In this document: one piece after another, positions 1 through 16,386 of the stretch
How positions within the stretch are numbered: position 1 is the stretch's first letter
How the letters are laid out: each line of letters begins with the position of its first letter
From: an uncultured Thermotogae bacterium
GTDB taxonomy: Bacteria; Bipolaricaulota; Bipolaricaulia; UBA7950; UBA9294
Length of the DNA stretch: 64,000 nucleotides
Assembly: GCA_964608345.1 (NCBI GenBank)
Contig: CAZSNG010000001.1
Span: forward strand, 6,299 to 70,298
Direction of reading: 5' to 3'
The notes under the pieces: generated by a model
The model's database searches: none
What the model saw: the letters and a program-made list of their open reading frames with translations, nothing else
What the model was told of the DNA's origin: nothing
Made by a program: the position numbers and the translations under genes

Positions 1-1
1 G

Positions 2-472
2 ATCGATCACACGGAGCCGGGGGTCCTCCTGTTCGACCGGGAAGGAGGACTCCTTCTCGCCAAGACCGAGGATGCCATAGGTGTCTACCAGGCCGGGGAC
101 GGCGAGCGGCTCCGGACGATCGACGTCGGCACCGCCGTGCTGTCGCACGACGAGGAAACGCTCGTGACGACGACGCGGACGCACACCGCGCTCACGCTCC
201 GGCGACACCTGTTGGCCACGGGCCAGCAGGTCGATGCGTTCGAGCACGACATGTACTCGGTCGAGATCGCTGCCTTCTCCGATGATGAACGCCTGCTTGC
301 CACCGGCTCTCGAGACGAGGTACTCCGGTTGTGGTCGGCGGAGACCGGAAGATGCCCTTCGACTGGAATCCGTCACTCGACGGTGCGATGGAGTCGTGTG
401 GTGCATACATCACGGTGCTCGGCTTCTCGTCGGATGGCGGGTCATTGGCGGGCGTGGCTCGGCCTGGAGTGA
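2..472 (+). CDS. WD40-repeat protein, C-terminal fragment (5' end lies outside the window)
   Basis: The reading frame is open from nt 2 to the stop at 470-472. It contains a LATGSRDEVLRLWSAETG motif typical of a WD40 blade. Confidence 0.5.
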   Translation: MDHTEPGVLLFDREGGLLLAKTEDAIGVYQAGDGERLRTIDVGTAVLSHDEETLVTTTRTHTALTLRRHLLATGQQVDAFEHDMYSVEIAAFSDDERLLATGSRDEVLRLWSAETGRCPSTGIRHSTVRWSRVVHTSRCSASRRMAGHWRAWLGLE

Positions 473-531
473 CGGGCCGAGCCGGAACCCGCGGCCCGTA
501 GCGGCCTCCGGCTCCGGTGTGATGTGGATCT

Positions 532-560
532 CTTGACAGTCGCAGCGGGCCACCCTATGA
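532..560 (+). promoter_or_regulatory. Near-consensus sigma70-type promoter (TTGACA, 17-nt spacer, TATGAT) for the aromatic operon leader
   Basis: TTGACA at 532-537 and TATGAT at 555-560, separated by 17 nt, about 230 nt upstream of the first operon gene. Seen directly in sequence. Confidence 0.55.
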
Positions 561-571
561 TCCATTCCAAC

Positions 572-652
572 ATGCACAGGGAAACGGATCGAGACGCGAG
601 GCAGCTTCCGAGCCGAACCCTGGCTGCATTTTTCTACTATTTTTGGTGCTGA
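572..652 (+). CDS. Leader peptide of an aromatic amino-acid attenuator (MHRETDRDARQLPSRTLAAFFYYFWC)
   Basis: A 26-codon ORF starts about 12 nt after the -10 box, so it is nearly leaderless. It ends with the run F-F-Y-Y-F-W, carrying Phe, Tyr and Trp codons. Alternative hairpins and an intrinsic terminator follow it. Confidence 0.6.
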   Translation: MHRETDRDARQLPSRTLAAFFYYFWC

Positions 653-705
653 CTTCCCTGATCCGATCTAGCGGTTCGTAGATCGAGGAGGGAAGTCAAG
701 AAGGA

Positions 706-737
706 CTGCAGGCAATCGCCTGCGGTCTTTTTCTTTT
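706..737 (+). terminator. Rho-independent attenuator terminator: 8-bp GC stem CTGCAGGC/GCCTGCGG, loop AATC, then the T-tract TTTTTCTTTT
   Basis: The hairpin plus U-tract lies between the leader ORF and aroH. An upstream segment CTTCCCT (653-659) can pair with AGGGAAG (689-695) to form an alternative structure. Confidence 0.6.
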
Positions 738-789
738 GGCTGCGAGGGCCGCCGACGCGGCGGCCGAAGCGAAGGGGCAGGGAGTTGTC

Positions 790-1164
790 ATGAGGTGTTT
801 CGGGATTCGCGGAGCCGTCGACGTGCCGCGGAATGGTGCTGAGGAGATCGTCGATGCGACGCGCGGGCTGCTCGAGCGAATGGCCGCGGAGAACGGGGTC
901 GGGCCGACGGACATCGTCAGCGTGACCTTCTCCGCGACGAAGGATCTGGACGCGGCTGCGCCGGCCCAGGCGGCCCGCGATCTGGGGTGGATGCACACGC
1001 CGCTCCTCTGCGTGCAGGAGATGGAGACGCAGGGCGCTCTGGCACGGTGCGTCCGTGTGCTGATGCACGTCAACGGAGATCGGTCGCCGGACGAGGTTCG
1101 GCACGTCTATCTCGGCGCCGCGAAGGCCCTGCGCCCGGATCTGACGAAGGAGGTGGCGGCATGA
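790..1164 (+). CDS. aroH: Monofunctional chorismate mutase, AroH class
   Basis: MRCFGIRGAVDV...VRHVYLGAAKALRPDL aligns along its full length with Bacillus subtilis AroH (about 125 aa). Its stop overlaps the pheA start as ATGA. Confidence 0.85.
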   Translation: MRCFGIRGAVDVPRNGAEEIVDATRGLLERMAAENGVGPTDIVSVTFSATKDLDAAAPAQAARDLGWMHTPLLCVQEMETQGALARCVRVLMHVNGDRSPDEVRHVYLGAAKALRPDLTKEVAA

Positions 1165-2012
1165 CACGCGTGGCGTACCAAGGGATCGCCGGAGCGTACA
1201 GCGAGGAGGCGATTCGCCAGTACTTCGGACAGGAGGCCGAGGCGGTGCCGTGCGAGTCGTTTGCCGAGGTGTTCACCGCCGTCGAGCGGGGGGACTGCGA
1301 ACACGGGATGCTCCCGGTCGAGAACTCGATTGCCGGATCGGTCAACTGGTCGTACGAGCTGCTGATGGAGCACGATCTGCGGATCTCCGCCGAGGTGATC
1401 CTGCGGGTGCGCCACCTGCTGTTGGCGGCGTCCGGGACGTCGCTGGATGACATCGAGGTCGTCCGGTCGCATCCACAGGCACTCGCCCAATGCTCCCGCT
1501 ACTTGGCGCGGCACGGCTTCGTCGGTGAGGCGACCGAGGACACGGCTGGCGCGGCTCACGAGCTGCGCGAGAGCCCGGCGTCGAACGTCGCGGTGATCGC
1601 CGGCCAAGGGGCGGCCGATCTGACCGGGCTCGACGTTCTCGAACGGACGATCGAGGACTCGCTCTCCAACTACACGCGCTTCTTCGTGCTGTCACTTGAT
1701 GACGCGCCGCGGGCTCAGCGAAGCAAGACATCGATCGTGTTCACGACGCCGCACCGGCCAGGAGCGCTGCACGAGTGCCTCGGCGAGTTCGCCTCGCGCC
1801 GCGTCTCCCTGTGCAAGATCGAGTCGCGCCCGCGAGCCAGCCGTCCGTGGCAGTACATCTTCTACCTCGATTTCGAGGGGCATTGTCAGGATCCGGAGTG
1901 CGAGGCCGCGCTGATGGGGCTGCTGCGACGGTCGTCGTTCGTCAAGATGCTCGGCTCGTACCCGGCAGCGACTACGCCGATCGACGACGCGAGCGGGGAG
2001 GTTCGATTGTGA
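1161..2012 (+). CDS. pheA: Prephenate dehydratase with C-terminal ACT domain
   Basis: A PDT catalytic domain (TRVAYQGIAGAYSEEA...ESRP motif region) is followed by an ACT regulatory domain. The ATG overlaps the aroH stop. Confidence 0.9.
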   Translation: MTRVAYQGIAGAYSEEAIRQYFGQEAEAVPCESFAEVFTAVERGDCEHGMLPVENSIAGSVNWSYELLMEHDLRISAEVILRVRHLLLAASGTSLDDIEVVRSHPQALAQCSRYLARHGFVGEATEDTAGAAHELRESPASNVAVIAGQGAADLTGLDVLERTIEDSLSNYTRFFVLSLDDAPRAQRSKTSIVFTTPHRPGALHECLGEFASRRVSLCKIESRPRASRPWQYIFYLDFEGHCQDPECEAALMGLLRRSSFVKMLGSYPAATTPIDDASGEVRL

Positions 2013-3022
2013 TCGTGATCATGAAACGCGATGCGACACCGGCGCAGCTGACCAACGTCGTCGCCCGCATCGAGCAGATGGGGTGCCAGGCGCACATCTC
2101 ACGTGGCGAGCAGCGAACGCTGGTGGGGATCATCGGCAACGGGCGGCCGTTCGAGACGGAGCACCTGGAGCAGATGGCGGGCGTGGAGAAGACGATGCCC
2201 GTGACACGTCCGTTCAAGCGCGCCAGCCGGGACTTCCATCCGCAGGACACGCACGTCGTGGTCGGTGACGTGACCGTCGGAGGCGCAGAGATCACCCTGA
2301 TCGCCGGTCCGTGCGCGGTGGAGAGCCAGGAGCAGATGTCGGAGATCGGTCGCGCAGTCAAGGAGGCCGGCGCGCAGATGCTTCGGGGTGGCGCGTACAA
2401 ACCGCGGACCTCGCCGTACTCGTTCCAAGGAATGGGCGAGGAAGGACTGAAGATCCTCGCCCGCGTGCGGGAGGAGACCGGCCTTCCGATCGTCACCGAG
2501 GTGGTCCAGCCGGAGTTGGTTCCGCTGGTCACCCGCTACGCCGACGTGCTGCAGATCGGGGCCCGGAACATGCAGAACTTCGCGCTGCTGCACGCCGTCG
2601 GGCAGGCGCACGGCCCGGTGCTGCTGAAGCGGGGGATGATGTCGACGGTGGAAGAGCTGCTGATGGCCGCTGAGTACATCCTCAGCCACGGCAACGACCG
2701 GATCATCCTGTGCGAGCGTGGCATCCGAACATTCGAGCCGTACACCCGCAACACACTCGACATCAACGCCGTGCCGCTGTTGAAGTCGCTGACCCATCTG
2801 CCCGTGATCGTCGACCCGAGCCACGGCACCGGGAAGTGGGAGCTGGTCGAACCGGTGTCGCGGGCCGCCATTGCAGCCGGCGCCGACGGGCTGATCGTCG
2901 AAGTGCACAATCATCCGGAGGACGCTGTCTCGGATGGCGCGCAGTCTCTTCTGCCGAAACGGTTCGTGCAGCTGCGCGAGTCGGTGAACGCGATCGCGGC
3001 GGCCGTCGGGAGGTCGACGTGA
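2009..3022 (+). CDS. 3-deoxy-7-phosphoheptulonate (DAHP) synthase, type I-beta, with an N-terminal ferredoxin-like/ACT regulatory domain
   Basis: The KDSA/DAHPS core carries the GPCAVES and KPRTSPYSFQG motifs. An N-terminal extension of about 75 aa matches the Thermotoga-type regulated DAHPS architecture. The GTG start overlaps the pheA stop as GTGA. Confidence 0.85.
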   Translation: MIVIMKRDATPAQLTNVVARIEQMGCQAHISRGEQRTLVGIIGNGRPFETEHLEQMAGVEKTMPVTRPFKRASRDFHPQDTHVVVGDVTVGGAEITLIAGPCAVESQEQMSEIGRAVKEAGAQMLRGGAYKPRTSPYSFQGMGEEGLKILARVREETGLPIVTEVVQPELVPLVTRYADVLQIGARNMQNFALLHAVGQAHGPVLLKRGMMSTVEELLMAAEYILSHGNDRIILCERGIRTFEPYTRNTLDINAVPLLKSLTHLPVIVDPSHGTGKWELVEPVSRAAIAAGADGLIVEVHNHPEDAVSDGAQSLLPKRFVQLRESVNAIAAAVGRST

Positions 3023-10409: not shown

Positions 10410-10559
10410 AACCTCCAGAGTCGGGAGCCTAACCGTGGCTTTCGCGTCACGGGTGGACAGGCGCGCCGCTCGTCCGCGAGAATGTCGTACGATGCGTGAC
10501 GCAGATCGCGTTCCCGGCGAACGGGAAGGCGCTCCGCGTGCGTGGGAACAGGAGGATTC

Positions 10560-11537
10560 ATGACGCTACTGCTGGCGAGGGACGAAGTTGCACAGGTGCT
10601 CGGAATGGCCGACTGCATCGACGTGGTCGAGAAGGCGTTCGCCGAGTTGGCCTCCGACACGGCCGTGTTGCCGCTGCGGATCGGGATCAAGCCGCCGGGC
10701 GGCATTTCGCTCTACATGCCGGCGTATCTGAAGGACCTCGGCGCGCTCGCGTGCAAGGTCGTCACGGTCTACAAGGACAACCCGAGCAAGCACGGCATGC
10801 CGACGACGATCGGCAAGGTGCTGCTGCAGGATCCGGACACCGGAGACGTGACCTGCATCATGGACGGCGGGTATCTCACGGCCGTGAGAACCGGTGCCGT
10901 CTCCGGCGTGGCGACCAAGTACCTCGCGCGCAAGGCCGATGGTCTGGTCGCCGGTGTCTTTGGTGCCGGCGTTCAGGCACGGATGCAGCTGCGCGCGGTC
11001 GCCGCCGTGCGCGTGCTGGGCCGCGCCATCTTGTACGACCCGTCGCCCGAGGCGATCGACGGCTTCCTCGAGGCGCTCGCCGACCTCGGCCTCGACATCG
11101 AACGAGCGGAATCGGCCGAGGCAGTCCTCGATCAGGCGGACATCCTGTGTGCCGCAACATCGTCGCCTACGCCGCTGTTTGACGGGAGCCTCGTCCGGCC
11201 GGGAACGCACATCAACGGCATCGGCAGCCACACGCCGAACGCGCGCGAGTTGGACACCGAAATCGTCCGGCGATCGAAGTTCGTCGCCGATTCCGCCGAG
11301 GCTTGCCTCAGCGAGGCGGGCGATCTGATGATCCCGATTGAGGAGGGCGCGATCACCGCGGGTCACATCCACGCGGATCTCGGCGAGATCGTGCTCGGCC
11401 GGAAGCCGGCGCGCGAGACCGACGACGAGATCACCGTGTTCAAGTCTGTCGGCCTCGCGATCCAGGACGTGGCGACGGCCAAGCTCGTCTACGATCGGGC
11501 CGTCGAGGTGGGGATCGGAACCGAGGTCGATCTCTAG
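10560..11537 (+). CDS. Ornithine cyclodeaminase / mu-crystallin family protein
   Basis: Similar to OCD/mu-crystallin along its full length, including the Rossmann region VAGVFGAGVQARMQL. RBS GGAGGA lies upstream. Confidence 0.8.
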   Translation: MTLLLARDEVAQVLGMADCIDVVEKAFAELASDTAVLPLRIGIKPPGGISLYMPAYLKDLGALACKVVTVYKDNPSKHGMPTTIGKVLLQDPDTGDVTCIMDGGYLTAVRTGAVSGVATKYLARKADGLVAGVFGAGVQARMQLRAVAAVRVLGRAILYDPSPEAIDGFLEALADLGLDIERAESAEAVLDQADILCAATSSPTPLFDGSLVRPGTHINGIGSHTPNARELDTEIVRRSKFVADSAEACLSEAGDLMIPIEEGAITAGHIHADLGEIVLGRKPARETDDEITVFKSVGLAIQDVATAKLVYDRAVEVGIGTEVDL

Positions 11538-11674: not shown

Positions 11675-14233
11675 GTGGTGGGCATGCTTCGCGTCCTCGG
11701 ACTCACGATTGCACTCCTCGCGCTCGGCGCGGCGCTCGTCATCTTCGACGTCGTGCACCGCCCGCTTCCGGACCACGACGGCACCCTCGTGCTAGACGGC
11801 CTTCGGGCGTCGGTTGAGGTCCTTCGCGATGCGCAAGGGGTGCCCCACGTCTTCGCGTCGAACATGCACGATCTCTTCTTCGCGCAGGGGTTCGTGCAGG
11901 CGCAGGATCGCTGGTGGCAGATGGAGTTTTGGCGTCACACGGCGAGCGGGACGTTGTGCGAGCTGGTCGGGCGTAGCGACGCCGCGCTGCGAGCCGATCT
12001 GCTCATCCGGACACTCGGATGGCGGCGGGTCGCGGAGGCCGAAGCCGCAGCGCTCGACGCGACCACCGGCGAGTGGCTCCGGGCGTTCTCCGACGGCGTG
12101 AACGCCTACATCGGCGGCCGGGCACCGAGCGAGTTGGCGCTGGAGTACCTCGTGCTCGGCCTCACCGGGATTGACTTCGACGTCGCACCGTGGACCCCGG
12201 TCGATACCCTCGTCTTCGCCAAGCTGATGGCGTGGGACATGGGCCTGGAAGAGAGCAAGGACGTGCTGCGCGCTGCGCTGTACGAACGGATCGGCCCGGA
12301 GATGACCGACGCGTGGCTGACGCCGCCGTGGCCGTACGACGAACGGCCGACGATCGTGCAGCCGGCAGACCTGCCGGACGCATCAAGTGCACCGGCCGAG
12401 TCCACCGGCCGAACGCCTCCGGCGGTCGGCTCGACGGCGTTTCGGAGGCAGGCGTGGGACAGCGTCGGGGCCACGATCGGCACCGGCCCGGGCGGAGGGA
12501 CGAACGCGTGGGCGGTCGGCGGGGCCTGGACGGCGAGCGGCCGGCCGCTGCTGGCGAACGACACGCACTTGGGAATCCAGCTTCCGACGGTCTGGTACGA
12601 GATCGGTCTGCACTGCTCCGCCGGTGTCGATCCGGCGTTCGACGTCGTTGGCTTCGCCTTCCCCGCGTCGCTCGGCGTCGTTGTCGGGCACAACGGGACC
12701 ATTGCCTGGGCGATCTCGAACGCGTTCCCCGACGTTCACGACGCCTACCGCCTCCGAATCAACCCGGACGACCCGCTGCAGTACGAGTGGAACGGTTCCT
12801 GGCGGGACGTGACGGTCCGCGAGGAGGTCATCGCGTTCGGCGACGGATCGGAGCCGGTCGTGATCCGGGTTCGCGAGACGCACCTCGGCCCGATCACGAC
12901 GGACAACCGCCTCGATCCGGCGACCGGAAGGATTTCGGGCTTCGCAAACGAAGAGCCGCTTGCGCAGCGGTGGACGGCCCTCGATCCGGGGACGGTCTCG
13001 AGAGCCGTCGTTGCCATCGATCGCGCCGAGGACTGGGAGGCGTTCCGCGATGCGTTGCGCGACTGGGACGTCCCTGCGCAGCACTTCGTCTACGCGGACA
13101 CGGAGGGGAACATCGGCTACCAGCTGGCCGGGCGCATCCCCATCCGCGCCGGGGACTTCGACGGGATGGTTCCGACGATTGGGTGGACGGACACGCACGA
13201 GTGGGCCGGATTCGTCCCGTTCGACCTCCTTCCCCACGTGCTGAACCCGGAGAGTGGTGTCGTGGTCGCGGCGAATCACGCAGCGGTTCCGCCTTCGTAC
13301 TCAGGCTTCCTCGCGGATCACCTGGGAGAGGGGCTCAACTACGCGTTCAACGGCGAAATCGACTACGCCTACCGCGCGGCGCGGATCCATGAGCTACTGA
13401 CCGCCGAAACACCGCACTCGGTCGAGAGCTTCCAGGCGATGCAGGCCGACACGAAGCTGCTCTCCGCCGACGAGATTCTGCCGGTTCTCGCGGATCTCCC
13501 GCTCGACGGTATCTCTGCCGAGGCGCGGGACTGGCTGCTTGCGTGGGACGGCCGCTTCGATCCGTCGAGCGCGCGTGCGCTCCTGTACGCGTTGCTGTGG
13601 GACGCGCTGGTCCGGAACGTCTTCGCCGACGAGCTCGGCACCGACGCGCAGCTCGTCGGTGGGGATCGCGAGATGTGGGCGATCCGATGCCTGCTCGACG
13701 TCCCGGAGCACCGTTGGTGGGATGATGTGGAGACCGGGGACGTCGTCGAGGTGCGGGACGACATCTTCCGGCGGTCGTTCGCGGAGGCGTGGGCCGCGGC
13801 GACCGAACGATTCGGTGCGGATCGGTCGTGCTGGTCGTGGGGATGCGTCCACACGGCAACGTTCGTCAGCAAGCCGCTCGGCCAGAGCGGCATCGGGATC
13901 TTCGAGACCCTCGTCAACCGAGGGCCGATCCCGGTGGGTGGGATGACTGACACGATCTCCAATACCCGCTGGAACGTCTCCGCCGGGACGTTCGATGTGA
14001 AGAGCATTCCCGCGATGCGGATGGTCGTCGATCTCGCCGACCTGTCACGCTCCGTGGCGATCCACTCGACCGGACAGAGCGGCCACCCGTTTTCAGTGGA
14101 CTACGACGACATGATCGCGGACTGGCAGGCGGCCCGTGGGGCTCCGATGCTGTGGATGCGCGAGGAGATCGAGGACGCGGCCGTCGATCGCCTGATCCTC
14201 CGTCCGCCGAACCGAATCGGCTCCGGCGTGTAA
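11675..14233 (+). CDS. Penicillin acylase family (S45 Ntn-hydrolase) protein with N-terminal signal/TM segment
   Basis: 852 aa. The GVPHVFASNMHDLFFAQGFVQAQDRWWQMEF motif block is typical of penicillin G / AHL acylases. Confidence 0.8.
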   Translation: MVGMLRVLGLTIALLALGAALVIFDVVHRPLPDHDGTLVLDGLRASVEVLRDAQGVPHVFASNMHDLFFAQGFVQAQDRWWQMEFWRHTASGTLCELVGRSDAALRADLLIRTLGWRRVAEAEAAALDATTGEWLRAFSDGVNAYIGGRAPSELALEYLVLGLTGIDFDVAPWTPVDTLVFAKLMAWDMGLEESKDVLRAALYERIGPEMTDAWLTPPWPYDERPTIVQPADLPDASSAPAESTGRTPPAVGSTAFRRQAWDSVGATIGTGPGGGTNAWAVGGAWTASGRPLLANDTHLGIQLPTVWYEIGLHCSAGVDPAFDVVGFAFPASLGVVVGHNGTIAWAISNAFPDVHDAYRLRINPDDPLQYEWNGSWRDVTVREEVIAFGDGSEPVVIRVRETHLGPITTDNRLDPATGRISGFANEEPLAQRWTALDPGTVSRAVVAIDRAEDWEAFRDALRDWDVPAQHFVYADTEGNIGYQLAGRIPIRAGDFDGMVPTIGWTDTHEWAGFVPFDLLPHVLNPESGVVVAANHAAVPPSYSGFLADHLGEGLNYAFNGEIDYAYRAARIHELLTAETPHSVESFQAMQADTKLLSADEILPVLADLPLDGISAEARDWLLAWDGRFDPSSARALLYALLWDALVRNVFADELGTDAQLVGGDREMWAIRCLLDVPEHRWWDDVETGDVVEVRDDIFRRSFAEAWAAATERFGADRSCWSWGCVHTATFVSKPLGQSGIGIFETLVNRGPIPVGGMTDTISNTRWNVSAGTFDVKSIPAMRMVVDLADLSRSVAIHSTGQSGHPFSVDYDDMIADWQAARGAPMLWMREEIEDAAVDRLILRPPNRIGSGV

Positions 14234-14265
14234 GTCTCCCGAACCCACCCACGGAGGCGATACGC

Positions 14266-16386
14266 ATGCAGCGCCGCATTGTCTGGTCCGTTTTCGTCGT
14301 CACGTTGGGATGGCTCGTCGCGCTCTCCGTCGGCACGTTCGCCGACGGGGTCATCCTTCCGGATCACCCCGAGCTCGGCTGGCTATCAGTCGTCTATCAC
14401 GATGTGGAGGTGACGATCCGCGACGGAGTCGTCACGACGCACGTCGATCAGCTGTTCCGCAACGAGACCGGTCGGGACCTGGAGGGCCGTTACGTCTTCC
14501 CGCTCTCCCCGGGTGCGGTCGTGTCGAGCTTCACGATGTGGATCGACGGCGAGGCACTCGAAGCGCGGATCCTCGACGCCGACGAGGCGCGGGCGATCTA
14601 CGAGGACTACGTTCGCCGGGCGATCGACCCGGCGCTCCTTGAGTACATCGGTCGCGACACGCTGTCGGCGCGGATCTTCCCGATCCCGGCCGGCGGCGAG
14701 CGTCGGATCGAGATCACCTACTCCGAACTGCTGTCGCCGGAGAGCGGAACGTACCGCTACCGGTATCCACTGGACACCGAGCGCTTCTCGGCGAAGCCGC
14801 TCGAGCGGGTGACGATCGCCGTCGACCTGCAGACGAGCGGGCAGCTGTCGGCGATCTACTCCCCGACGCACCCCCTCGATGTGGTCCGGTCGGCCCGGGA
14901 CGCTGCGACGGCCCGGTACGTTGCGTCGTACGTTCGCCCCTCGCAGGACTTCCTCCTGTACTACGCCGTGACCACCGAGGCGATGGGGATGACGGTCTTG
15001 ACGTACCGGATCCCCGGCGAGGACGGCACGTTCCTGCTGATCGCGACGCCGCCCGACCTCGACACGGCGACGATCCCGAAGGACCTGGTGTTCGTCCTCG
15101 ATACGTCGGGGAGCATGAGTGGGCAGAAGATCGCCCAGGCGAAGGAGGCGCTCCGATTCGTCCTCGAGAACCTGAATCCGGAGGATCGGTTCGCGGTGAT
15201 CAGCTTCTCCGACACCAGCGCCGCGCTGTCGACGCAACTCCAGACGGTCTCGGCGGAGACGGTCTCGCAAGCAACGTCGTGGGCTTCGAGGATCGTCGCG
15301 GCCGGCGGGACGAATATCGACGAGGCGCTATCGCTGGCCCTCTCCGTGTTCGAGGAGAACGACCGTCCGCGGTTCCTCGTCTTCCTCACCGACGGCGAGC
15401 CAACGGTCGGAGAGGTCGATCCGGTCGTGATCGCGAGGCATGCTGTGGAGGCGAACGTCACCGATGCGCGGCTGTTCGTGTTCGGCGTCGGCAACGACGT
15501 GAACACGATCCTCCTCGATCAGCTGGCGCAGGAGAACCGGGGGACGACGACCTACGTCCTCCCCGGCGAGAACCTCGAGGTCGCGATCTCGGGCTTCTAC
15601 CGCAAGATCGCCTCGCCGTTGCTGGCCGACACGCAGCTGGTAATCGACGGCGTGGAAGCGTACGACGTTCATCCGACCGTCCTGTCGGACGTCTTCCGTG
15701 GGACCCAGCTCGTTGTGCTCGGCCGCTACCGCGGCGAGGGGGACGCGCGCGTTACCGTGTCAGGGAGCGCCGGCGGGGTTGCCACGGCGTACACGACGGT
15801 TCAATCCTTCCCCGGCGCATCGCTCGAGAATCCGTTCCTCCCACGGCTGTGGGCGGGACGGAAGGTCTCCTATCTGTTGAACCAGATCCGCCTGTACGGC
15901 GAGAGTGACGAGCTCGTCGACGAGGTCGTCCGCCTCAGCCGACGGTACGGCATCATCACACCGTACACGTCGTTCCTCATCGACACGGACGACTACGACG
16001 CCGAAGAGGCGGCCGACGCCGTTCGCGAAGCGGCCGCCGCTCCGGCCACCGGGACGAGCGCCGTCGCGGGGGCATCGTCGCTCAAGAACCTCTCCGAAGC
16101 GGAGACGGTGCAATCGGGTGTTGAGGGAGTACGCATTGTCGACGATCGGACGTACTTCGTCCGCGACGGAGCCTGGGTCGATAGCGAATACGCCGAGCAG
16201 CCGACGATCGACGTCGTTCTGTTCAGCGGGGCCTACTTCGAGCTGTCGGAGATTGTGCCGTGGATCGCCCCGCACCTGGCGATCGGGCAGAAGGTCGTCG
16301 TGCGCGTCGGTGACGTCTTCTTGCGGATCGGGGAGGAAGGTGCAACCGAGCTGACCGCGGAGATCGTCGAGGCCCTGTCCTCGTAG
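14266..16386 (+). CDS. VIT domain plus von Willebrand factor A (VWA) domain protein, secreted or membrane-anchored
   Basis: An N-terminal hydrophobic segment is followed by a VIT domain and then a VWA domain with MIDAS motif DTSGSM. RBS GGAGG lies 9 nt upstream of the ATG. Confidence 0.8.
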   Translation: MQRRIVWSVFVVTLGWLVALSVGTFADGVILPDHPELGWLSVVYHDVEVTIRDGVVTTHVDQLFRNETGRDLEGRYVFPLSPGAVVSSFTMWIDGEALEARILDADEARAIYEDYVRRAIDPALLEYIGRDTLSARIFPIPAGGERRIEITYSELLSPESGTYRYRYPLDTERFSAKPLERVTIAVDLQTSGQLSAIYSPTHPLDVVRSARDAATARYVASYVRPSQDFLLYYAVTTEAMGMTVLTYRIPGEDGTFLLIATPPDLDTATIPKDLVFVLDTSGSMSGQKIAQAKEALRFVLENLNPEDRFAVISFSDTSAALSTQLQTVSAETVSQATSWASRIVAAGGTNIDEALSLALSVFEENDRPRFLVFLTDGEPTVGEVDPVVIARHAVEANVTDARLFVFGVGNDVNTILLDQLAQENRGTTTYVLPGENLEVAISGFYRKIASPLLADTQLVIDGVEAYDVHPTVLSDVFRGTQLVVLGRYRGEGDARVTVSGSAGGVATAYTTVQSFPGASLENPFLPRLWAGRKVSYLLNQIRLYGESDELVDEVVRLSRRYGIITPYTSFLIDTDDYDAEEAADAVREAAAAPATGTSAVAGASSLKNLSEAETVQSGVEGVRIVDDRTYFVRDGAWVDSEYAEQPTIDVVLFSGAYFELSEIVPWIAPHLAIGQKVVVRVGDVFLRIGEEGATELTAEIVEALSS

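Follow-up and report, generated by a model that had tools for sequence, protein, structure and literature searches.

The stretch of DNA considered here (64,000 nucleotides (nt) of contig CAZSNG010000001.1, the whole of which is called the window below) carries near its beginning an operon for the biosynthesis of aromatic amino acids and, in front of its first gene, aroH, a leader region made of a promoter, a short open reading frame (ORF) rich in phenylalanine and tyrosine codons, two RNA hairpins (named A and B hereafter) and an intrinsic terminator (Table 1). As assigned by Pfam, the gene content of the operon agrees with that given in the first-pass annotation, i.e., an earlier reading by a model from the letters alone, and no trp gene is present among the ten cistrons. 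Because most neighbours are joined by 4-nt stop/start overlaps, the ten cistrons can be regarded as one translationally coupled unit, and a consensus scan found no promoter-like site between the terminator and aroH (738–790). From the comparisons described below, this leader is likely to be a ribosome-mediated leader-peptide transcription attenuator, which would sense charged tRNA-Phe and tRNA-Tyr and gate the entire ten-cistron shikimate, phenylalanine and tyrosine operon.

Table 1. Features of the leader region and of the downstream operon, in positions of the window
Feature	Start	End	Strand	Description
-35 hexamer TTGACA	533	538	+	motif TCTCTTGAC kept in window-type relatives
-10 hexamer TATGAT	556	561	+	17-nt spacer from -35; predicted 5' untranslated region of only about 0–4 nt
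leader ORF	572	652	+	MHRETDRDARQLPSRTLAAFFYYFWC + UGA; 26 codons; stop TGA 650–652
hairpin A	574	624	+	within the ORF, 5' of the Phe/Tyr run; outer stem 574–581/618–624, inner stem 585–597/604–615
regulatory Phe/Tyr run	629	643	+	UUU UUC UAC UAU UUU, codons 20–24, F-F-Y-Y-F; by codon-position entropy
hairpin B	650	698	+	outer stem 650–659/689–698, inner stem 664–670/679–685
intrinsic terminator	699	737	+	stem 699–713/718–732, loop AAUC, U-tract 728–737
aroH	790	1164	+	AroH-type chorismate mutase; Pfam CM_1, E = 9e-43
pheA	1161	2012	+	prephenate dehydratase; Pfam PDT; start overlaps aroH stop
DAHP synthase	2009	3022	+	type I catalytic domain and ferredoxin-like N-domain; Pfam
tyrA	3019	3879	+	prephenate dehydrogenase; Pfam
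aroA	3876	5165	+	EPSP synthase; Pfam
aroE	5162	6031	+	shikimate dehydrogenase; Pfam
aroC	6028	7170	+	chorismate synthase; Pfam
aroK-aroB	7160	8770	+	shikimate kinase and 3-dehydroquinate synthase fused in one ORF; Pfam
aroQ	8767	9237	+	type II dehydroquinase; Pfam
class I/II aminotransferase	9234	10409	+	last translationally coupled cistron; Pfam

Relatives of the leader were gathered by tracing AroH homologues to their contigs and by scanning metagenomes for a conserved 22-nt leader motif. Eleven different complete leaders of the same type, called window-type below, were obtained, namely that of the window, L001, L002, L004, L006, L088, L091, L092, L095, L097, and L098, together with two incomplete ones (L094 and L096), the AroH proteins of these relatives being 62–77% identical to that of the window. 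All eleven complete leaders keep the promoter, both hairpins and the terminator, and their ORF always counts 26 codons, the leader peptides of the relatives reading, for instance, MPRVTDRDARLLPSRTLAAFYYYFWR, MSRDKARDARQLPICALVSFFYYFEG, MFREMGRDARQLPNCALALFFFYFTY, and MSRNTAREVRLTSTRNLAAFYYYFAN; the ORF and the terminator, the conservation of which the first-pass annotation had proposed to check in related genomes, are both retained throughout. In an alignment of these leaders, 97.2% of the cells of the three-hairpin structure are paired, compared with 33–53% when the partners are slid, and compensatory changes occur in five pairs, three of them in the terminator. With the ORF, the hairpin and the terminator so conserved, the initial proposal of ribosome-mediated attenuation in front of the whole aromatic operon is very probably right.

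The promoter, described initially as near-consensus (TTGACA, 17 nt, TATGAT), is read directly in the sequence, matches the consensus at 11 of 12 positions and is the better of two sites found by the consensus scan in 14 kb, where 0.7 would be expected. The leader ATG does follow the -10 box, at a distance of 10 nt rather than the approximate 12 nt first noted, and across the eleven leaders this spacing is 6–10 nt; none of the eleven has a Shine-Dalgarno (SD) sequence before the ATG. Because of this short spacing together with the lack of an SD, the leader is probably translated leaderless or nearly so, which is what had been suspected, the argument resting on promoter geometry in eleven lineages; transcription would start about 0–4 nt before the ATG and the leader would be read from a leaderless or near-leaderless mRNA. 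A precedent for translation of this type is the leader of ilvB in Corynebacterium glutamicum, i.e., the three-hairpin attenuator of ilvBNC, whose translation begins a single nucleotide from the start of the transcript (PMC11857589). The ORF itself is as claimed, with three Phe, two Tyr and one Trp among its last eight codons, and on both strands of the window (128 kb in total) it is the sole short ORF with at least five aromatics in any seven consecutive residues.

The way in which the ORF varies among the eleven homologues tells apart its coding and its structural parts. In codons 20–24, the entropies at positions 1, 2, and 3 are 0.09, 0.41, and 0.80; UUU and UUC on the one hand, and UAU and UAC on the other hand, interchange freely, Phe swaps with Tyr, and F20, Y23, and F24 are invariant. 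Because the run varies mainly at third codon positions, selection bears on the amino acids themselves, and the alignment indicates that the leader ORF is translated and that its Phe/Tyr identity is under selection. In codons 7–13, the third position is the most conserved one (entropy 0.22), from which an RNA-level constraint exerted by hairpin A is deduced, and what is conserved in the N-terminus of the peptide is the nucleotide sequence rather than, specifically, the amino acids. In codons 25–26, the first two positions vary freely and there are always two codons. As for tryptophan, the UGG at 644–646 (codon 25), right after the run, is not conserved, a Trp codon being found there in only 5 of the 11 window-type leaders. 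Since F20, Y23, and F24 are invariant and the Trp codon is not, the conserved sensor is, as judged from the alignment, Phe plus Tyr, which matches an operon making Phe and Tyr but not Trp; the idea that the leader senses all three aromatic amino acids is not borne out by this Trp codon count nor by an operon devoid of trp genes.

The RNA of the leader (565–745) folds far better than expected by chance, with a minimum free energy (MFE) of -78.5 kcal/mol against -56.2 ± 4.2 for dinucleotide shuffles (z = -5.26; none of 200 shuffles as good). Hairpin A, which pairs the G of the start codon, has 94–95% of its cells paired in the window-type alignment (helices 1 and 2), and its 3' arm is covered by a ribosome stalled on the Phe/Tyr run. 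Pausing of the polymerase for synchronisation and closing of the 5' AUG behind the first ribosome are its likely roles. A 23-nt stretch of this hairpin, UCGAGACGCGAGGCAGCUUCCGA (589–611), is nearly invariant in the eleven lineages, third codon positions included, with the consensus UCGAGACGCGAGRCNGCUUCCGA; it holds two GAGAC-like repeats (the second being GAGGC in the window) and a GCUUCC motif, which are similar to the base of the terminator and to the 5' arm of hairpin B. Such conservation exceeds the needs of a stem and hairpin A may have a second function, either as a protein site or as a trans-acting RNA like rnTrpL of Sinorhizobium.

Hairpin B begins at the stop codon of the leader, the UGA of which pairs with UCA. 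It has 97–98% of its cells paired and a free energy of -22 to -31 kcal/mol across homologues; its inner stem is rebuilt from other sequence in L091 and L094, and its internal and apical loops are not conserved. The terminator helix (helix 5) has 100% of its cells paired and compensatory changes in three pairs. Its core reads GGACTGCAGGC/GCCTGCGGTC with the loop AATC and the tract TTTTTCTTTT at 728–737, and the consensus scan called it at 699–732 with 15 pairs followed by UUUUUCUUUU, in agreement with the intrinsic terminator initially located just before aroH. Hairpin B and the terminator core share no nucleotides, being separated by a spacer of 4–6 nt, and the spacer element AGUC-N6-GACU is invariant across the window-type leaders. 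Equally constant are the length of the ORF, the gap of two codons after F24 and the stop, which is UGA followed by C in all eleven and always lies inside the base of hairpin B. UGA-C is a slow termination context in Escherichia coli. In L094, where GGA stands in place of the first UGA, the ORF continues to the second UGA, three codons deeper into hairpin B, the distance from the run to hairpin B being kept. A second in-frame UGA is also seen in the window three codons past the leader stop (CUU CCC UGA, 653–661), in the 5' arm of hairpin B, and several relatives share it. The fixed stop, ORF length, two-codon gap and spacer, as compared across these sequences, point to a precise geometric device.

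When the ribosome is modelled as a mask over the mRNA, a ribosome with its A site on codons 20–23 covers the message to about 641–650, i.e., no further than the base of hairpin B, and a ribosome at the UGA covers it to about 662, so that the outer stem of hairpin B loses its entire 5' arm; because of these modelled positions, hairpin B would report whether the ribosome is stalled or has finished. With Phe and Tyr plentiful, the ribosome would reach the UGA-C at the base of hairpin B and melt its 5' arm, and, hairpin B being open, the polymerase would halt at the terminator 47 nt further on, releasing a transcript of about 170 nt. With Phe or Tyr scarce, the ribosome would stall at codons 20–24 with its leading edge reaching the base of hairpin B or halting just short of it, hairpin B would stay closed and more polymerases would read through into aroH, a direction of regulation that we infer. 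All the conserved features would fit a logic of read-through when hairpin B is closed and of termination when a terminating ribosome has opened it. Closed hairpin B may lower termination through a weak overlap with the terminator base, as in the ilvB leader of C. glutamicum, through a steric or tethering effect, or through another factor, and our confidence in any particular account of how hairpin B acts is low.

Leaders in front of aroH are not confined to the window type. In a genome scan with one genome per species, based on the AroH alignment and covering at least 80 loci (closer genomes may exist), the best among the matches listed were metagenome-assembled genomes (MAGs) of Anaerolineae, with AroH identity of up to 62%. 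Taking as criterion a short ORF with at least five aromatic residues out of seven within 350 nt upstream of aroH, such a leader was found in 34 of the 43 Chloroflexota loci among the matches listed, 31 of which also have a terminator; the reverse complement gave 0/43, the region 750–1100 nt upstream 0/40, and other phyla 1/33. Several of the nine Chloroflexota loci below the cut-off still have interrupted runs, e.g., AYTYIYF. The single positive outside Chloroflexota among the matches listed, L027, has an aromatic-rich ORF (…GVSFGFYYWFSDG…) and a terminator, the ORF lying about 230 nt upstream of aroH at 1782 in a MAG labelled Neomarinimicrobiota; independent evolution, horizontal transfer or mis-binning could account for it.

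In the distant leaders, i.e., those of Roseiflexus and of Anaerolineae and Caldilineae MAGs, the ORF runs on for some 9–20 codons past the aromatic run, and this tail holds a GCUUCRCG-like strand complementary to a strikingly conserved 5' arm of the terminator, CGUGGAGC. The duplex between tail and terminator arm has a median of -13.6 kcal/mol, with a shuffle fraction of at most 0.05 in 15 of 38 loci, and the tail strand would be covered by a ribosome at the stop codon in nearly all of these distant loci. As modelled, the distant Chloroflexota leaders are thereby of the classical design, with mutually exclusive antiterminator and terminator. Both designs stand before aroH, pheA, DAHP synthase and tyrA and combine an ORF rich in Phe and Tyr (and at times Trp) with an intrinsic terminator, whereas the window type lacks the ORF tail, has another terminator sequence and has hairpin B instead. 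Two side observations belong with these loci. The Roseiflexus leaders (L055–L057, L065, and L078) have two conserved Trp codons in the run, YFFWFWYF, and Trp sensing may be real in that lineage, as far as the codons tell. SAM riboswitches lie near the aro operon in two Chloroflexota loci, namely L017 (1344–1452, 87 bits) and L012 (6302–6360, 51 bits).

Several points weigh against the attenuator proposed for the window. In the window lineage, neither five complementarity tests nor the folds revealed an antiterminator mutually exclusive with the terminator. The terminator forms with a ribosome on the Phe/Tyr codons, on the stop or absent, in MFE as well as ensemble folds. The strongest alternative pairing, 623–636 with 699–713 (-13 kcal/mol), is not conserved and would be masked by the stalled ribosome, giving the wrong sign. 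Finally, without an SD, translation of the leader depends on the leaderless assumption. As such, the classical switching step is not demonstrated in the window lineage by these models.

The candidates for such a step that were tried and rejected are as follows. CTTCCCT (653–659) and AGGGAAG (689–695), taken by the first-pass annotation for alternative pairing segments, pair with each other as the outer arms of hairpin B, and in place of the mutually exclusive hairpins that folding was expected to confirm, hairpin B and the terminator coexist in all folds, whether or not a ribosome was masked in. A stalled ribosome, by covering the 3' arm of hairpin A, would set free the 5' end with the start-codon region; the pairing of this region with either terminator arm is at chance level, as is that of the first 42 nt. 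Any strand between the Phe/Tyr run and the terminator, hairpin B included, pairs with the terminator 5' arm at -4.8 to -10.3 kcal/mol, with shuffle fractions of 0.16–0.96, compared with the median of -13.6 kcal/mol obtained in the classical relatives by the same test. The loop of hairpin B can form a pseudoknot of 7 bp with the terminator arm in the window and in L001, and the other loops differ without matching changes. The 4-bp mini-hairpin AGUC-N6-GACU is conserved, but it is worth only -2.2 kcal/mol and would form with hairpin B open, which is the wrong sign.

The remaining candidates bear on the foremost rival explanation, namely that the leader-peptide attenuator has a conventional RNA switch missed by these tests, either a zipper or a weak antiterminator overlapping the terminator base; we hold this to be improbable. 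In the zipper version, the pyrimidine-rich codon region 623–649 would pair with the purine-rich spacer and terminator 5' arm (698–713) and thereby lengthen hairpin B. Folding without the terminator 3' arm does pair 623–636 with 699–713 around hairpin B (-58.2 against -52.3 kcal/mol), the spacer GUAG of L004 pairs with CUAC of the terminator arm, and the last ORF codons can lengthen the stem of hairpin B into the GGACU of the terminator in 5 of 9 relatives, for a gain of 1.4–5.9 kcal/mol. There are also precedents for the topology in the zipper-type attenuator of pLS20 and in the ilvB attenuator, with its 3-nt overlap. The pairing partner and the register, however, change from sequence to sequence, and the energies are no better than those of shuffled or random controls, which holds for the extension of hairpin B into GGACU (5 of 9 folds) as well as for the zipper between codons 15–24 and the spacer and terminator arm, which attains -13.5 kcal/mol in the window but lacks conservation and does not exceed chance level. 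Moreover, 623–636 would lie under a ribosome stalled on the Phe/Tyr codons, so that the zipper would bring termination upon starvation, the wrong sign for a biosynthetic operon.

Switching could also proceed without competition between base pairs, a proposal that stays within leader-peptide attenuation and is tentative and, as a specific account, unlikely. Closed hairpin B, 6 nt upstream of the terminator stem, would, by steric means or by being tethered to the stalled ribosome, impede completion of this stem at the RNA exit channel. Termination would be restored once hairpin B is opened by a ribosome that waits at the UGA-C, a stop that terminates poorly and lies in the base of the hairpin. 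Such a device would be a structural-hindrance antiterminator with a two-codon resolution, and the constancy of the 26-codon length, of the UGA-C stop and of the spacer agrees with it, as does the lack of an antiterminator.

Control of the terminator mainly by a trans-acting factor, e.g., an RNA-binding protein on hairpin A or B, with the ORF secondary or incidental, would explain why no RNA antiterminator was found and why the 23-nt stretch of hairpin A is near-invariant beyond the needs of a simple stem, third codon positions too. Selection on Phe/Tyr identity and a fixed frame of 26 codons are nonetheless unexpected for an incidental ORF, relatives with quite different RNA sequence keep the Phe/Tyr ORF, and the internal and apical loops of hairpin B are not conserved. 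Neither is there a match to a known regulatory family; over positions 1–3000 of the window at E ≤ 10, no Rfam family matches, including T-box, Phe_leader, Trp_leader, Leu/phe_leader, and riboswitches, the sole hit being a terminator-like ctRNA, which scores 26.5 bits where the gathering score is 50, and the Rfam leader families have no match in ten related loci. We regard such a factor as a very improbable main regulator. Hardly credible, lastly, is an essentially constitutive terminator whose released RNA of about 170 nt, or the leader peptide of 26 residues, would be a functional product in trans, for which the RNA-level conservation in hairpin A and the precedent of the Sinorhizobium attenuator RNA rnTrpL and peptide peTrpL, which are reported to act in trans (PMC6614838; PMC7298713), can be adduced, but any function in trans would come on top of attenuation instead of taking its place, the N-terminus of the peptide is conserved as nucleotides, and with no other recognisable promoter at 738–790 read-through is needed for expression.

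Ribosome-mediated attenuation being preferred, the leader of the window can be set beside known systems, its functional class being, from its sequence features, that of the trpL/pheL-type attenuators. With pheL-pheA and trpL-trpEDCBA of E. coli it has in common a short ORF with a run of codons for the end product, a terminator before the first gene and the position of the ribosome as the signal. It differs from them by the absence of sequence or Rfam similarity, by sensing two amino acids (Phe and Tyr), by a leader without an SD that would start at or next to the 5' end of the transcript, by a stop two codons past the run in the base of a hairpin not overlapping the terminator, and by the lack of a detectable 2:3-type antiterminator in the window lineage. 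The closest parallel in logic is aroR of C. glutamicum, a Phe-Tyr-Phe leader before aroF (DAHP synthase) acting by attenuation (Neshat et al., 2014, as cited in PMC11802643), which is likewise a mixed Phe/Tyr leader at the entry to the common aromatic pathway; in C. glutamicum, only Phe limitation had an effect. It belongs to another phylum, whereas the window has a run of five or six codons and its leader gates ten cistrons, pheA and tyrA included, rather than the aroF-containing operon.

Two further systems resemble the leader in topology. In ilvBNC of C. glutamicum, antiterminator and terminator are adjacent hairpins that overlap by 3 nt only, at the terminator base (PMC11857589), whereas hairpin B and the terminator of the window share no nucleotides and the regulatory amino acids differ. 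In the zipper-type attenuator of pLS20 (PMC13401043), a central long hairpin stands between a segment upstream and a terminator downstream, and the shortened RNA of the window folds alike, but pLS20 has no leader peptide and the complementarity between the flanks in the window is not above chance. A single mixed-aromatic leader over the common pathway, considered unusual in the first-pass annotation, is accordingly already known from aroR. What is new is the taxon, the breadth of the controlled operon, the occurrence of two architectures before the same operon, and the window-type architecture, in which tests failed to reveal a competing antiterminator, one of the features that define the class. 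Literature searches found no paper describing either leader type in Chloroflexota-like bacteria.

Regarding the surroundings of the leader, the upstream neighbour is the 3' end of a gene for a WD40/beta-propeller repeat protein (2–472, same strand), which stops 60 nt upstream of the -35 hexamer. Between the terminator and the SD of aroH lies a GC-rich hairpin without a U-tract, GGCCGCCG ACGC GGCGGCC (747–767), and GC-rich hairpins of differing sequence are seen in the same spacer of relatives; it may affect SD exposure or transcript stability. A TTG at 736, in the U-tract of the terminator, is in frame with aroH, and one public source annotates a 142-residue AroH from there (P0001); the true start is probably the ATG at 790, preceded by AGGGAG, the longer annotation being probably wrong. 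Downstream of the aminotransferase, and after a gap of 132 nt with a weak promoter-like site (10454–10483), comes a gene of the ornithine cyclodeaminase/mu-crystallin family (region 10410–11537), which may or may not be a member of the aromatic operon, then a penicillin-amidase family gene (11675–14233) and a gene for a VIT-VWA protein (14152–16386).

For annotation, the leader means that a real small ORF is to be marked and that an AroH start placed in the U-tract of a terminator is to be corrected. For the biology of these organisms, it would extend leader-peptide attenuation of aromatic biosynthesis to Chloroflexota-like bacteria, where the whole common pathway, along with the Phe and Tyr branches, appears to be under a single leader. 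The leaders would further offer a natural pair of designs for the same operon, on the one hand, the classical antiterminator, and on the other hand, a hairpin of fixed geometry between the stop codon and the terminator. If it is true that the design of the window regulates, the position of the ribosome would be coupled to termination without strand competition.

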